Source of the DNA: an uncultured Bacilli bacterium
GTDB lineage: Bacteria; Bacillota_I; Bacilli_A; RF39; UBA660
Reading direction: 5' to 3'
DNA: 64,000 nt
NCBI GenBank assembly: GCA_934153945.1
Contig: CAKPFM010000006.1
Coordinates: forward strand, 27,318 to 91,317
Shown piece after piece: positions 30,688-34,784 of this stretch (within the stretch, counting starts at the first letter, position 1; each line of letters begins with the position of its first letter). The translations under genes were made by a program, and so were the position numbers. The notes beneath the pieces are model-generated. The model had not been told where the DNA came from. It saw nothing but the letters and a program-made list of their open reading frames with translations, and searched no databases.

Positions 30688-31233
30688 TTAGTTATCTTGA
30701 AGTAATATTTGTCCATCTATAATTGGTATATTTGGGAAACTTTCATCCATTAATGTAAAGTTTCTAACTGGCGCTGGTGGATTTGTTATTTGAACTGTTT
30801 CAGTCTCTTCAGTCATAGTAATAGATTTTACTGTATCATCAAATGTATGACCTCCATCACTTGATATTTGCTTATAATATATTGCATTACTTCCTGTTTC
30901 AGCAAATGGAACATTATTAAATACAGCATCTCCATCATCATTAGTTATTATTTCATTTCCAACTATTGTTCCTGTACTATCTGTTCTTATAAATTTAGCA
31001 CCTACAATTTGTACTCCAGTATTAGGATCTCCTGTATCTGTAACATGAAGTGTTAAAATTCCTTTTGCACTTATTGTAAAAGCATATGTATCTGTCCCAT
31101 CTATAATAGTTACACTTTTTGGATTAAGTGTTGATGCATCATATCCCCCTGCAATAGCAGTTGCATTATATATTCCTGCCACAAGTTCAATACTTCCTTT
31201 ACCATTTGTTATTGGGATTGTATGTCTTGCCAT
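30688..31233 (-). CDS. Prealbumin-fold (SpaA/Cna-B-like) domain protein, no signal peptide
   Basis: TLHVTDTGDPNTGVQIVGAKFIRTDSTGTIVGNEIITNDDGDAVFNNVPF..YYKQISSDGGH resembles Cna-B/SpaA-type beta-sandwich repeats. Strong SD GGAGGGAAG. N-terminus MARHTIPITNGKG is not hydrophobic. Confidence 0.5.
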   Translation of the reverse strand: MARHTIPITNGKGSIELVAGIYNATAIAGGYDASTLNPKSVTIIDGTDTYAFTISAKGILTLHVTDTGDPNTGVQIVGAKFIRTDSTGTIVGNEIITNDDGDAVFNNVPFAETGSNAIYYKQISSDGGHTFDDTVKSITMTEETETVQITNPPAPVRNFTLMDESFPNIPIIDGQILLQDN

Positions 31234-31568
31234 AATATCATCTTCCCTCCTTCTATTTTTATATTTGGATAATATTTATCCTTTAGTAAAACTGTAACAA
31301 AATGTTCTTTCCTTTTATTATTACTAATATTTATACAATAAACATTATCTTTTCTTGCAATTAAAGGTATTTTCACAATTGATAAATTAGAATATATGAC
31401 TAATTTATATACCTCATTATTGCATATTGGTATTTTTACTTTTCCAAAATTATCTGTTATTCCCTCAAAAACAATCTCATTACATTTATTTTTTAGTTTT
31501 AGTTTTAAATTACCTAGACTTATACTTTCATTACTGCAAAATTTGATATAAATATAATCACTTGTCAT
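31209..31568 (-). CDS. Small beta-sandwich (carboxypeptidase-regulatory-like) protein, no signal peptide
   Basis: 119 aa. LKLKLKNKCNEIVFEGITDNFGKVKIPICNNEVYKLVIYS pattern. Overlaps the downstream gene by 25 nt. Confidence 0.4.
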   Translation of the reverse strand: MTSDYIYIKFCSNESISLGNLKLKLKNKCNEIVFEGITDNFGKVKIPICNNEVYKLVIYSNLSIVKIPLIARKDNVYCINISNNKRKEHFVTVLLKDKYYPNIKIEGGKMILWQDIQSQ

Positions 31569-31627
31569 AATTCACGTCACCTCATTATAATATATTTTAT
31601 GAACAAATTTTCTTTTTTGTAAAGGTA

Positions 31628-33493
31628 TTATGCCTCTACACTCCAAATTATTAACGTAGAATAATCTTCATCTTCAAGTAAATCTTTACTGGGCTTTAGA
31701 AATAATCCTTTATCAACAGAAAATGTAACATTACTTACATTTACCATTCCCCCATTATCATTTGATTCATATACTAATTTTTTACTTGTTTTTAAAAGAA
31801 TTTCTTCATTATTAAATTTCTTAAAAAATAAAGAATTTATTAATACTTTACCACTTTCTTCTATCATTGGATTTGTATAATTTAAATATAATTTCCAATT
31901 TGTACTATTTACTCTACTATCAACTACAGTTACTACTGTTTCGTTATTTTTAGGCAATATAATTGGATTAGTTGAAGATGGTATCATACTAAACGGAATA
32001 TTTTTTGTTGCTTTTAAAAGGGTTAACTCTCCCATAAAAGGTGTTATTACCTTTCTTTCAGTAAAACAACTATTTAAACAAGATGTTATTTTAACCCTTG
32101 TATTATCTGGGATAACAGAATCTATATTTGCTTCAAACAAACCATTTTCATCTGAGACTGCCGTTAAAATTTTATTATCATATTCTATTTTAACATTTGC
32201 ATAAGGTATAGTATGACCTGAAATAGCATCCGTAGAATCTGTAATTGGATGAACATTTATCTTGAGCATTCCAATAGTTAATATTTTTTTATCTTGAAAT
32301 GAAAAACTATTTATATCTGATATTAAGCTTAATTCATCATCTGTAAAATTATGTGATGTAACAGTAGTACTATCTTTATTTAATACGCCTGTTATTTTAG
32401 CAGGTGTATTTTCTTTATACCAATAGAATGCTGGTATATCATCAAGTGTACAAGCAGAAGTATAATCTAAAGCATATATCCACATATTAATTCTACTAAA
32501 AGTAAACATAAAATCAACAGGATTATTGGTATAAACTACATTTGCATTTTTGGTATAAATATTTATATATTTTGGATTATCTAATATAAACTTTTGGTTT
32601 GTTCCTTTAAAATAAATATTATAATTATCAGATGGTGTAGTCATATATGTATTTATTACTGATACGCTTGCACCTTCTAAAACTTTAAAATCTCCAAATA
32701 TATTCCACATAGGAACTCTTTGATGACTTTTCTCTATAAATGTAAAATTAGCCATTTCTTCTATTAAAACATTTCTAGCACCATGAGTTGTCGTTATTGC
32801 AAAACCATTTCCTGTTGTTAAAAGAAATTCCGCACCATGACCTACTATTAAATCTAATCTATTAGTTCCATTCATAAATTCTTTATCAGTTGTAATACTA
32901 ACTCTACTATTTGGCATAATTTTAACTGAAGATGGTATAACATCATTAAAGAAAAAAACTGTATTAGTACTTGAACTACTTGTAATTGTTGTATTTCCAC
33001 CGATTATAATTCTATTGGAATTACAGGCTCTTTGTGCTGGAACATTATTAGTATCTTTTACTTCTAAAACAGAATCAACAATTTTAGTAGTTCCATAATA
33101 ATTTTGTGAAAGTTCGATTCCACTAAAATTTATGTTATTATATTCTACTACTACATTAGAATAATTTGGATGAGATGGAACATATATAACTCCATAACCA
33201 TGTGAAGATACTATATTCATATTTTTTAATATGATTCTTTTATTAGTTGTACTTACCTTTATAACCGTTTCTTCTAAACTCAAATTATTTGTATAAGTAT
33301 ATTTTGTATTATTATAAGTTCCATCAATTATCACTTTACTTTTATTACTATTTATAGTAAAACCACTTGTTGCAGTAATATCACTTCCTAAATAAATATA
33401 TTCATAACTATTATCTTCACTCAACACTTGTTTTAATTCATCATTATTTGTAACAACAACAGTATTATTATCTATTATTTGAATAATTATCAC
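31628..33493 (-). CDS. Large beta-helix (pectate-lyase-like) + bacterial Ig-like + WxL-like C-terminal domain protein, no signal peptide
   Basis: N-terminal 350 aa are Asn/Thr/Val-rich with repetitive beta-strand periodicity. Ig-like segment: ISGHTIPYANVKIEYDNKILTAVSDENGLFEANI. C-terminal VVDSRVNSTNWKLYL ... YSTLIIWSVEA resembles the two WxL motifs. No ATG at the 5' end: SD AAAGGAAGGTGA is followed by GTG/ATT candidate start codons. Confidence 0.55.
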   Translation of the reverse strand: MIIIQIIDNNTVVVTNNDELKQVLSEDNSYEYIYLGSDITATSGFTINSNKSKVIIDGTYNNTKYTYTNNLSLEETVIKVSTTNKRIILKNMNIVSSHGYGVIYVPSHPNYSNVVVEYNNINFSGIELSQNYYGTTKIVDSVLEVKDTNNVPAQRACNSNRIIIGGNTTITSSSSTNTVFFFNDVIPSSVKIMPNSRVSITTDKEFMNGTNRLDLIVGHGAEFLLTTGNGFAITTTHGARNVLIEEMANFTFIEKSHQRVPMWNIFGDFKVLEGASVSVINTYMTTPSDNYNIYFKGTNQKFILDNPKYINIYTKNANVVYTNNPVDFMFTFSRINMWIYALDYTSACTLDDIPAFYWYKENTPAKITGVLNKDSTTVTSHNFTDDELSLISDINSFSFQDKKILTIGMLKINVHPITDSTDAISGHTIPYANVKIEYDNKILTAVSDENGLFEANIDSVIPDNTRVKITSCLNSCFTERKVITPFMGELTLLKATKNIPFSMIPSSTNPIILPKNNETVVTVVDSRVNSTNWKLYLNYTNPMIEESGKVLINSLFFKKFNNEEILLKTSKKLVYESNDNGGMVNVSNVTFSVDKGLFLKPSKDLLEDEDYSTLIIWSVEA

Positions 33494-33562
33494 CTTCCTT
33501 TACAATAACTTATGTTAAACTTTAAAAGTTAGATAATTAAAAAGAATAGAATTTATCTACTC

Positions 33563-34696
33563 TTAATGTATTTTGGTAACACTTAACACTGCATTAGTAC
33601 TTCCATTAAATATTATATTAACAGCCATAGATGGTTTTACATTTAATGTAACAAGATCATTTTTATTAAGCGATACAATAGTAGAACCACTTATACAATT
33701 AATTATTTGTGCTTGAAATTCACTAGTTATATTTGTAGCAGGTTGTAGTATATCATTTGCTCTTACAGACATAGTTAAAGAGCAATCTTCATTTGTTGCA
33801 CCACATAAAGAATATGAAATAAGATAAACTCCATTTTCTTTTATTTTAATTGAATTATCATCTGGATATTCTATAAGAAAAGCAGTCCCTTTTTCAGATA
33901 ATGGAATTACAGTATCAGTTCCTTGTGGTAAAGTAAGTTGCATATCAGACATTGAATATCTAATTCCATAAGAAGATACAAATTCCGTTCCTGGAGGACC
34001 CGCTGGACCTTGTGGCCCTCTATCTCCAACATCTCCTTTTTCTCCTTTTGGAATTAAAAAAGCTAAATGATGAACCCAATCTTCAAAAGTATCCATCACT
34101 TGTGCTGGTTCACCTGGTTCTAGAGTTTCAGTTTCATCTATAGCAATATGTTCAGTTCTACCAATTTCTCCTGGCAATCCTCTTGGTCCAGTATCTCCTT
34201 GATCTCCTTTTTCTCCTTTTGGTATTTTAAATTCTAAAACTACATCTACTGGTGTTCCAACATTTATAACTTCAGCTTCTTCAGTAGGTTCTATTGTTTC
34301 AATATTTCCAATTTGAATAGTGGATGGCCCTTGATCTCCTTTTTCACCTTTTATACCTTGAGGACCAATATCACCTTTTTCTCCCTTTGGTCCTGGTATT
34401 CCTTGAGGACCAATTTTTCCATCTAATCCTTGTTCCCCTCTTGGTATTTTAAAATTTAAAATAACATCCTCATTTGTTCCTACATTTTCTACTTTGGCTT
34501 TTTCAAATGGTTCTACTGTTTCCGTAATTCCAACATCAATACTAGCAGGTCCTGGTATTCCTCTTTCTCCTTGTTGACCAACATCACCCTTTTTACCTTT
34601 TGGACCTGTTGGACCTTGAATATAACAAAATCTGTATTTTTTTCTTTCTTCTTCTATTTTTTTTCTTATTCGTTCATAATCATTGCAATTATTCAT
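33563..34696 (-). CDS. Collagen-like triple-helix repeat protein with C1q/TNF-like (BclA-type) C-terminal domain
   Basis: Four G-X-Y blocks (GPTGPKGKKGDVGQQGERGIPGP etc.) alternate with I..G..ET.EP...A.V.NVGT..DV.L.F.IP.GE modules. C-terminal NGVYLISYSLCGA...LVTLNV is C1q-like. Start refined to ATG 34694-34696 (GAGGAG upstream). No signal peptide. Confidence 0.8.
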   Translation of the reverse strand: MNNCNDYERIRKKIEEERKKYRFCYIQGPTGPKGKKGDVGQQGERGIPGPASIDVGITETVEPFEKAKVENVGTNEDVILNFKIPRGEQGLDGKIGPQGIPGPKGEKGDIGPQGIKGEKGDQGPSTIQIGNIETIEPTEEAEVINVGTPVDVVLEFKIPKGEKGDQGDTGPRGLPGEIGRTEHIAIDETETLEPGEPAQVMDTFEDWVHHLAFLIPKGEKGDVGDRGPQGPAGPPGTEFVSSYGIRYSMSDMQLTLPQGTDTVIPLSEKGTAFLIEYPDDNSIKIKENGVYLISYSLCGATNEDCSLTMSVRANDILQPATNITSEFQAQIINCISGSTIVSLNKNDLVTLNVKPSMAVNIIFNGSTNAVLSVTKIH

Positions 34697-34784
34697 TATA
34701 CACGCTCCTCTAACTTTTTTAGAATCAATTTTCATATTTTAATTCTTCTATTTTAATTTATGAAAATATTTTTAAAATGTATAA

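Follow-up and report, generated by a model that had tools for sequence, protein, structure and literature searches.

A conserved four-gene block of collagen-like and beta-solenoid proteins in the uncultured order RF39, a candidate spore-surface module

We analysed a 64,000-nucleotide (nt) stretch of contig CAKPFM010000006.1 (positions 27,318 to 91,317), from an uncultured Bacilli bacterium of the order RF39; this whole stretch is referred to here as the window. Our subject is a block of four genes that encode a collagen-like protein (COL), a beta-solenoid protein (P621) and two small proteins (P119 and P181). On balance we read the block as a late mother-cell module of the RF39 spore surface, that is, a nap or appendage plus an adhesin, because sigma-K-type promoter motifs are conserved at the block and common to SpoVIF- and YutH-like genes, COL has a BclA_C head, YabG is encoded nearby and the four proteins have no export signals. 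A first-pass annotation of the window had proposed a spore-surface module of previously undescribed composition. Promoter conservation, a BclA_C match above threshold, YabG and the signal-less proteins support the first part of that proposal at the level of sequence, and our literature searches are consistent with the second.

The block, its promoters and its distribution

The block and its borders comprise the following features, given in window coordinates.

33563-34696 (-): COL, 377 amino acids (aa), collagen plus BclA_C; conserved start M14 at 34696
31628-33484 (-): P621, 618 aa from ATT; the mechanical open reading frame (ORF), 31628-33493, begins at GTG 33493
31209-31568 (-): P119, small basic protein
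30688-31233 (-): P181, small acidic protein, predicted CnaB/prealbumin-like
33537-33564 (-): hairpin and U-run at the COL stop, 9-bp stem followed by UUUUU
30605-30636, approximate (-): intrinsic terminator 3' of P181, 10-bp stem and U-run, -11.3 kcal/mol, z -2.9
34785-34994 (-): TnpB (IS605 OrfB) N-terminal remnant, 69 aa, HTH_OrfB_IS605 6.8e-8

This layout agrees with the four co-oriented, tightly packed genes, the terminator boundary and the upstream TnpB remnant noted in the first-pass annotation: four minus-strand ORFs lie within 30688-34735, the P119 and P181 reading frames overlap by 25 nt, a hairpin is present at about 30605-30636 and the remnant is identified by its HTH_OrfB_IS605 match. 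The remnant abuts the COL promoter; it is peculiar to this genome, being missing at other loci, and lies outside the conserved block. The word 'island' proved to be a misnomer. The G+C content of the window is about 24% throughout and that of the block is no different from its surroundings, which rules out a compositional island. We checked the four proteins for export signals by simple hydropathy and regular expressions, not SignalP, and found no hydrophobic N-terminus, transmembrane segment, lipobox or LPxTG motif in COL, P621, P119 or P181, as had been claimed.

Three sigma-K-type motifs were identified in the block.

34754-34780 (-): motif upstream of COL, ACATTTTAAAAATATTTTCATAAATTA = AC-N16-CATAAATTA, exact match
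33506-33514 (-): second CATAnnnTA element, CATAAGTTA, 5 nt upstream of the P621 ribosome-binding site
31593-31620 (-): third motif, between P621 and P119, AC-N17-CATAAAATA

Most loci share TATACATTTTAAAAATATTTTCATAAATTAAAATAG upstream of COL, which corresponds to AC-N16-CATAAATTA, the sigma-K consensus. CATAAAnTA precedes COL at 44 of the 56 loci, compared with 12 of 304 control intergenic upstream regions from the same loci, and the full AC-N16/17-CATAnnnTA arrangement at 33 of the 56, compared with three of the 304 controls, with the caveat that CATAnnnTA is short, the genome is 24% G+C and the loci are related, so that these conservation statistics are inflated. The -10 box of COL persists in distant lineages despite diverged surrounding sequence. 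The sigma-K pattern that the first-pass annotation had pointed out at 34754-34780 is therefore present and strongly conserved across loci, although within the window it is unremarkable when taken alone.

Motifs of this type also precede the other genes of the block. A hairpin of -6 kcal/mol or better, followed by a T-run, was found after the COL stop codon at 43 of 64 loci, with a stem sequence that differs between lineages; it is likely to be a terminator, perhaps a partial one, so that COL would be transcribed as a separate unit. A CATAnnnTA element lies no more than 125 nt beyond the COL stop at 52 of 64 loci, distant lineages included, and we regard this element as the putative mother-cell -10 box of P621. 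Between P621 and P119 the element is present at 43 of 66 loci and is missing only where the spacer measures 18-27 nt.

Few other genes at these loci have the motif. They include an orthologue of the sporulation regulator SpoVIF (NF052662, 1.1e-20; locus L035, 20442-20687), a YutH-like spore-coat kinase (TIGR02905, 1e-13; L002, 7689-8576, and L013, 19001-19915) and extra collagen paralogues. In Bacillus subtilis spoVIF is sigma-K-dependent. Signal-less P621 homologues on unrelated gut contigs have CATAAATTA or AC-N17-CATACAATA just upstream (L076, 7960-8000; L073, 7950-7975); these occur singly or as tandem copies and lack the neighbouring small genes, and one of the contigs encodes a dockerin-domain protein. 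A wider signal-less family of beta-solenoid/WxL-like proteins may thus be spore-associated. A scan for sigma-70 promoters gave 38 sites compared with 39.3 expected in shuffled sequence. The region upstream of yabG has no clean CATAnnnTA box, and yabG is therefore unusable as an internal positive control.

A search for P621 in GTDB representatives recovered 69 species-level genomes, which are labelled as uncultured Bacilli, Tenericutes or Mollicutes, as Clostridium sp. CAG:433, CAG:417 or CAG:302, or as Acholeplasma sp. CAG:878; RF39 is the order that contains family CAG-433 and genus CAG-878 (PMC8035907). The order and orientation COL-P621-P119-P181 are identical at 65-68 of the 69 loci, and P119 is conserved in 66. 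Two loci (L054 and L063) have a tandem duplication, COL-P621-COL-COL-P621-P119-P181. The whole block occurs again at 52% identity in another gut contig (L078), beside an intact TnpB (IS605 OrfB / Cas12f-like; 7095-8234), and the remnant in the window lies on the corresponding side; elsewhere, a P621 homologue of 35% identity adjoins a collagen gene. Flanking families recur in 13 loci at most; those that do recur, identified by sequence reading, are SecA, release factor 2 (RF2), FtsY, an ABC ATPase, a hibernation factor, a sortase and LemA.

The ratio of non-synonymous to synonymous substitution rates (dN/dS) is 0.13-0.5 for P621, P119 and P181 in comparisons with six loci. Thus, as judged from substitution rates, the genes of the block are maintained under purifying selection and are not remnants. 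SecA or RF2 genes linked to the block within 10 kb are often less conserved than the block itself, whose identities are incongruent with theirs (loci L003, L009, L010, L013, L019, L021, L022, L006 and L040), as in the following pairs.

L003-L009: SecA 66%, P621 89%, P181 93%
L003-L022: SecA 89%, P621 81%, P181 93%
L019-L006: RF2 57%, P621 81%, P181 91%

Because block and housekeeping identities are incongruent and the flanks are variable, these comparisons suggest that the block has been exchanged horizontally as a cassette among RF39 species, or else that it is under exceptionally strong constraint.

The encoded proteins

The mechanical ORF of COL spans 33563-34735 and encodes 390 aa. Since the 56-61 orthologues compared begin at M14, we take COL to be a protein of 377 aa; this conserved start reads MNNCNDYER and has a GAGGAG ribosome-binding site 7 nt upstream, and the frame of the additional ATG further upstream is not kept among orthologues. 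COL begins with a highly charged segment of 27 aa flanked by Cys4 and Cys24 (MNNCNDYERIRKKIEEERKKYRFCY), continues with four G-X-Y blocks of 8, 13, 7 and 7 triplets, and ends in a 139-aa BclA_C (C1q/TNF-like) head. The alternation of collagen blocks with modules of the form I..G..ET.EP..A.V.NVGT..DV.L.F.IP.G had been recognized in the first-pass annotation; its four collagen blocks stand, and the modules between them number three rather than four, each of 35-36 aa. Its proposal of a C1q/TNF-like C-terminus was likewise sound, with BclA_C (PF18573) scoring 41.0 bits against a cut-off of 38 over residues 274-389 of the 390-aa ORF, although the C1q model itself gave only a sub-threshold Pfam match. 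Collagen was matched at 5.8e-15, and orthologues of COL carry precomputed PF18573 assignments. When the head alone was used as a query, solely close RF39 relatives were recovered, all of them BclA_C, and no outside kin. Some loci (L006, 12915-14012 and neighbours; L046; L067) encode extra BclA-like collagen paralogues beside a glycosyltransferase that combines a family 2 (GT2) domain with tetratricopeptide repeats (TPR), an arrangement that recalls the glycosylation of BclA.

P621 has no ATG start, as reported previously. In the window, CAA-ATA-ATA is directly preceded by ATT (at 33484), as it is in about 35 close relatives, and this codon aligns with ATG or GTG in other lineages (loci L001-L066). 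P621 is therefore likely to start at this ATT, a weak initiation codon that gives a protein of 618 aa, and conservation of the weak codon suggests deliberately low translation relative to COL. We built an AlphaFold2 (AF2) model of P621 with 52 family members (predicted local distance difference test score, pLDDT, 93.6; predicted template-modelling score, pTM, 0.89). The model has a right-handed beta-helix from residue 1 to about 390, an Ig-like domain at about 400-485 and a C-terminal beta-sandwich, and so bears out the beta-helix-like N-terminal half and the Ig-like domain predicted by the first-pass annotation. In Foldseek the top match in the PDB was the binding region of a Lactobacillus reuteri serine-rich repeat protein (SRRP; 5ny0, probability 1.00, E 1e-3, target-normalized TM-score, TMt, 0.61); at the level of sequence, P621 and P181 had no meaningful match among PDB chains.

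The P621 family consists of 407 clusters at 50% identity. Among the 52 members mentioned above, Pfam assigned Pectate_lyase_5 to 34, Big_6 to 23 and WxL to six; the best scores in the family were 3.5e-15 for Pectate_lyase_5 (PF20585, 'putative pectate lyase-like adhesive domain') and 7.8e-5 for WxL (PF13731). P621 itself matched neither WxL (E <= 0.1) nor Pectate_lyase_5 in Pfam, and Pfam, PHROG and NCBIfam gave a weak Big_6 match only. The suggestion that its C-terminus is WxL-like thus holds for the motifs, WKL at 533-535, which is nearly invariant in the family, and a distal WSV at 617-619, with W617 nearly invariant, and does not extend to a Pfam WxL match. Family members are of two kinds: longer proteins with a signal peptide and a low-complexity linker, and proteins of about 600-650 aa that start directly at the beta-helix. 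One distant, signal-peptide-bearing homologue, P0206, is encoded in a typical WxL locus, next to WxL and WxLIP_PGBD/HBD genes. Because the family splits in this way by signal peptide and a signal-bearing member lies in a WxL locus, P621 is, on the evidence of its relatives, a signal-less derivative of a secreted, wall-associated family of 'pectate-lyase-like adhesive' proteins from WxL loci.

Of the two small proteins, P119 is basic (isoelectric point, pI, 9.3) with four Cys residues and has no family in Pfam, PHROG or NCBIfam, and P181 is acidic (pI 4.3) with neither Cys nor Trp; P181 is very strongly conserved, with a mean column identity of 80% over 24 sequences. Their C-terminal segments of about 40 aa, encoded at 31209-31330 (P119) and 30688-30815 (P181), are homologous (hhalign probability 90.8%, E 1.2e-6) and share the signature L.D..[FY]PNI.I..G..IL, and this shared module may be a common docking element. 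hhalign found no relationship of either protein to the P621 family. The AF2 model of P181 is of moderate confidence (pLDDT 67.7, core 72-86) and was built from a shallow alignment. In Foldseek it matched the CnaB2 structure 8bdw (E 2.7e-5, TMt 0.77) and the pilins GBS52, BcpA, SpaB and EbpB, and Pfam SpaA fell below its cut-off (15.8 compared with 23.1 bits). The prealbumin/CnaB-like fold predicted for P181 by the first-pass annotation is borne out to this extent, and we describe the core as a probable CnaB/prealbumin-like beta-sandwich. Neither a signal peptide nor LPxTG, features of sortase assembly, was found in P181.

Spore surface, alternative readings and described systems

Under the spore-surface reading, the mother cell would synthesize the four proteins in its cytoplasm at a late stage of sporulation, and they would self-assemble on the exterior of the forespore; since assembly would proceed from the mother-cell cytoplasm, secretion would not be needed. 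COL would trimerize through its collagen regions and C1q-like head to form hair-like filaments (a nap or tip fibrils), attached by the charged, Cys-flanked N-terminal segment. P621 would be an adhesin recruited from a WxL locus and stripped of its signal peptide, presenting a carbohydrate- or mucus-binding beta-solenoid and held via its WxL-like domain, and P119 (basic) and P181 (acidic) would serve as linkers or anchors, both docking to the same partner via the C-terminal module that they share. Because COL appears to have its own promoter and terminator and P621 to start with ATT, many COL filaments may be made per P621 adhesin. The likely role of such a structure would be in the adhesion of spores and their transmission between hosts.

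RF39 is a widespread uncultured order of reduced-genome gut bacteria found in humans and animals, often treated as non-sporulating and 'Mollicutes-like'. YabG, a sporulation protease, is encoded in the window at 19144-19920 (PF05582, 1.8e-93), and the first-pass annotation was thus correct in stating that the organism carries yabG. The literature is divided on sporulation in this order: RF39 has been predicted to include sporulators (PMC10868615), whereas a machine-learning study scored its metagenome-assembled genomes at 0% sporulation probability (PMC12536801). RF39 sequence variants were among the taxa passed to chicks via adult caecal contents applied topically to eggs, a route that, according to the title of that study, transplants spore-forming microbiota but not other members (PMC7028958). 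The block suggests itself as sequence-level evidence on the sporulating side of this dispute.

Several observations, the 0% score among them, weigh against a spore-surface role. Apart from YabG, neither sigK nor any other core sporulation gene was seen in the 64-kb window, and none of the known morphogenetic proteins of coat or exosporium (CotY/ExsY, CdeC or Ena) is encoded in the block. COL gave no NCBIfam match to an exosporium-leader family. WxL domains are known peptidoglycan binders on vegetative walls. With respect to the promoters, in addition to the inflated motif statistics, the match at 34754-34780 taken alone is not above chance in the window (0.78 expected), and the P621 motif has no canonical -35 element and would give a very short predicted leader.

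The WxL relationship leads to an alternative in which the block specifies an adhesion complex on the surface of, or released by, vegetative cells. Release would be non-classical, for instance through a holin-like pore, some other exporter or the lysis of part of the population; the proteins would then attach to the thin RF39 wall by the WxL-like domain, and the collagen fibre would function in adhesion in the manner of Scl or Lcl. Secreted adhesins of WxL loci are homologues of P621, whose fold also resembles that of the SRRP binding region, Pfam describes WxL as a surface cell-wall-binding domain, COL is weakly similar to the collagen-like adhesins Lcl, SclA and SclB, P181 resembles the CnaB domains of pilins, and the dispute over RF39 sporulation itself leaves room for such a complex. 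We nevertheless consider it unlikely, as the four proteins are signal-less in all lineages examined whereas the secreted relatives of P621 carry signal peptides, the motifs upstream are of mother-cell type and common to SpoVIF and YutH-like genes, no sigma-70-type promoter stands out, and there is neither a sortase signal nor a WxLIP partner. WxL clusters of Enterococcus and Lactobacillus-like Firmicutes combine a small WxL protein, WxLIP (DUF916-DUF3324) and a large pectate-lyase-like WxL protein. P621 is a full-length homologue of the large protein P0206, and the architecture Pectate_lyase_5 plus Ig plus WxL is common across its family; however, P621 lacks the signal peptide and low-complexity linker, the WxLIP and small WxL genes present beside P0206 are missing at all 69 loci, and the partners of P621 are instead a collagen/BclA_C gene and two small-protein genes. 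The L. reuteri SRRP binding region (5ny0, 5nxk) is, like P621, a right-handed beta-solenoid with an adhesin fold related to pectate lyases, but the two are only 14% identical. SRRPs use the accessory Sec system for export and are LPXTG-anchored, and P621 has no feature of either kind.

The first-pass annotation had itself offered an alternative, a remnant of a phage tail-fibre module. In a fuller version, the block would be a domesticated or decaying tail-fibre or receptor-binding module, or a tailocin remnant, with COL as the fibre and P621 as a tailspike-like depolymerase. COL does match PHROG tail-fibre families (for example phrog_5073, 5.4e-25), and collagen-like tail fibres of this kind share with it both collagen repeats and the 35-aa module, which matches the side tail fibre of Lactobacillus phage phiPYB5 (43%, E 8e-4); beta-helix proteins are common as tailspikes, and the genomic context is variable, with a TnpB remnant or gene nearby. 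The COL head, however, is a BclA_C domain with no phage match, and P621, P119 and P181 have no PHROG matches. Searches of IMG/VR viral contigs recovered no relative of either P621 or P181, and INPHARED gave only weak matches, confined to the beta-helix part of P621, to unannotated 'Listeria phage' records. Against the viral structures in BFVD, P621 gave generic tailspike matches with TM <= 0.29, compared with TMt 0.61 for SRRP. No phage structural, lysis or integration gene lies within +/-10 kb at any of the 69 loci, where the flanks are housekeeping genes. A prophage remnant was rejected on the basis of this lack of phage context, purifying dN/dS and intact ORFs in about 65 species, and, as the last two also speak against decay, we regard the broader phage reading as very improbable. 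We give still less credence to a cytoplasmic or otherwise non-surface structure with no relation to spores, for example for storage or as a scaffold, with the motifs read by a different sigma factor or kept for another reason. The lack of export signals and of assigned families for P119 and P181, and the presence elsewhere in the window of a gene for an unusual sigma-70 region-4 protein, would fit such a structure, but the recognizable domains (collagen/BclA_C, adhesive beta-solenoid, Ig, WxL-like and CnaB-like) are all typical of extracellular surface structures, and the motif is common to orthologues of sporulation genes.

Returning to the spore-surface reading, we compared the block with described spore-surface systems, and most likely it is a variation on the BclA/exosporium-appendage theme in an uncultured order. 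BclA-type proteins (Bacillus anthracis BclA; Clostridioides difficile BclA1-3) have, like COL, a G-X-Y stalk, a BclA_C trimerization head and no signal peptide, and BclA2 and BclA3 of C. difficile are under mother-cell promoter control by SigE/SigK (bioRxiv 10.1101/2021.06.21.449304). The extra paralogues and neighbouring GT2-TPR glycosyltransferase of some RF39 loci add to the likeness. Unlike these proteins, COL has neither the exosporium-leader motif that targets BclA to BxpB nor a leader-family match, its stalk is broken by the three non-collagen modules, and its gene is a fixed neighbour of those for P621, P119 and P181; no homologues of BxpB/ExsFA, CotY/ExsY or CdeC/CdeM were recognized near the block.

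In its logic, the closest described system by analogy is the ena3 cluster of Bacillus paranthracis (Ena3A, ExsL/CotZ and L-BclA), which encodes L-type endospore appendages and in which the leaderless BclA paralogue L-BclA caps a self-assembling spore appendage (bioRxiv 10.1101/2023.10.23.563578). Both ena3 and the RF39 block are small self-contained clusters that pair a leaderless BclA-type protein with signal-less partners that self-assemble or, in RF39, are predicted to do so; L-BclA and COL both have Cys residues in the N-terminal segment, and both clusters have a variable or mobile-looking context. The non-collagen components of ena3, however, have no homologue in the RF39 block: at the sequence level, P119, P181 and P621 gave no Pfam or NCBIfam match to Ena (DUF3992) or CotZ/ExsY. 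The RF39 partners are instead a 69-kDa beta-solenoid/WxL-like protein and two small proteins of presumed beta structure, and the lineage is RF39 rather than Bacillus.

More tentatively, and as a possibility we would not rate as high as the spore-surface reading itself, RF39 may make spores with an undescribed outer structure composed of a BclA-like fibre, a WxL-derived adhesin and two docking-module proteins, encoded by a horizontally exchanged cassette that sets spore adhesion and spread between hosts. With its mother-cell-type promoters, the block would be an independent line of evidence for continued sporulation in many RF39 species, and would name their likely outermost proteins. If the reading is true, it would reveal a new mode of spore-surface construction: the mother cell deposits a formerly secreted WxL-locus adhesin, minus its signal peptide, beside a BclA-like fibre. 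The proteins would then be candidate determinants of host-to-host transmission and of adhesion to mucus or glycans, and could serve as surface antigens or as handles with which to enrich, and eventually culture, RF39 spores.

Other features of the window

Positions 4785-7949 and 44584-45954 encode two large proteins, of 1054 aa and 456 aa, whose N-termini have a prepilin-type methylation motif. The C-terminal part of the 456-aa protein is leucine-rich-repeat and adhesin-like, and both have the appearance of surface proteins fused to a pseudopilin. Four minus-strand ORFs lie in a run at 47709-51873. Two of the products (358 aa and 478 aa) have no Pfam family and one is 222 aa long; the fourth, of 317 aa, is the sigma-70 region-4 protein mentioned above, which has region 4 only and weakly resembles the MZA anti-phage sigma factor MzaA (1.2e-12, far below the cut-off).

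At 23360-24036, in a repeated intergenic stretch between DHHW/MBOAT genes and an rnf operon, there are two paralogous small ORFs (81 and 102 aa), both with CATAAAATA upstream; the pair is probably a repeated non-coding element rather than genes. Finally, a T-box leader at 63761-63982 (139.5 bits) lies upstream of a run of minus-strand ORFs that ends at 61972-63474, and from sequence reading we take these ORFs to be amidotransferase and aminoacyl-tRNA synthetase genes.

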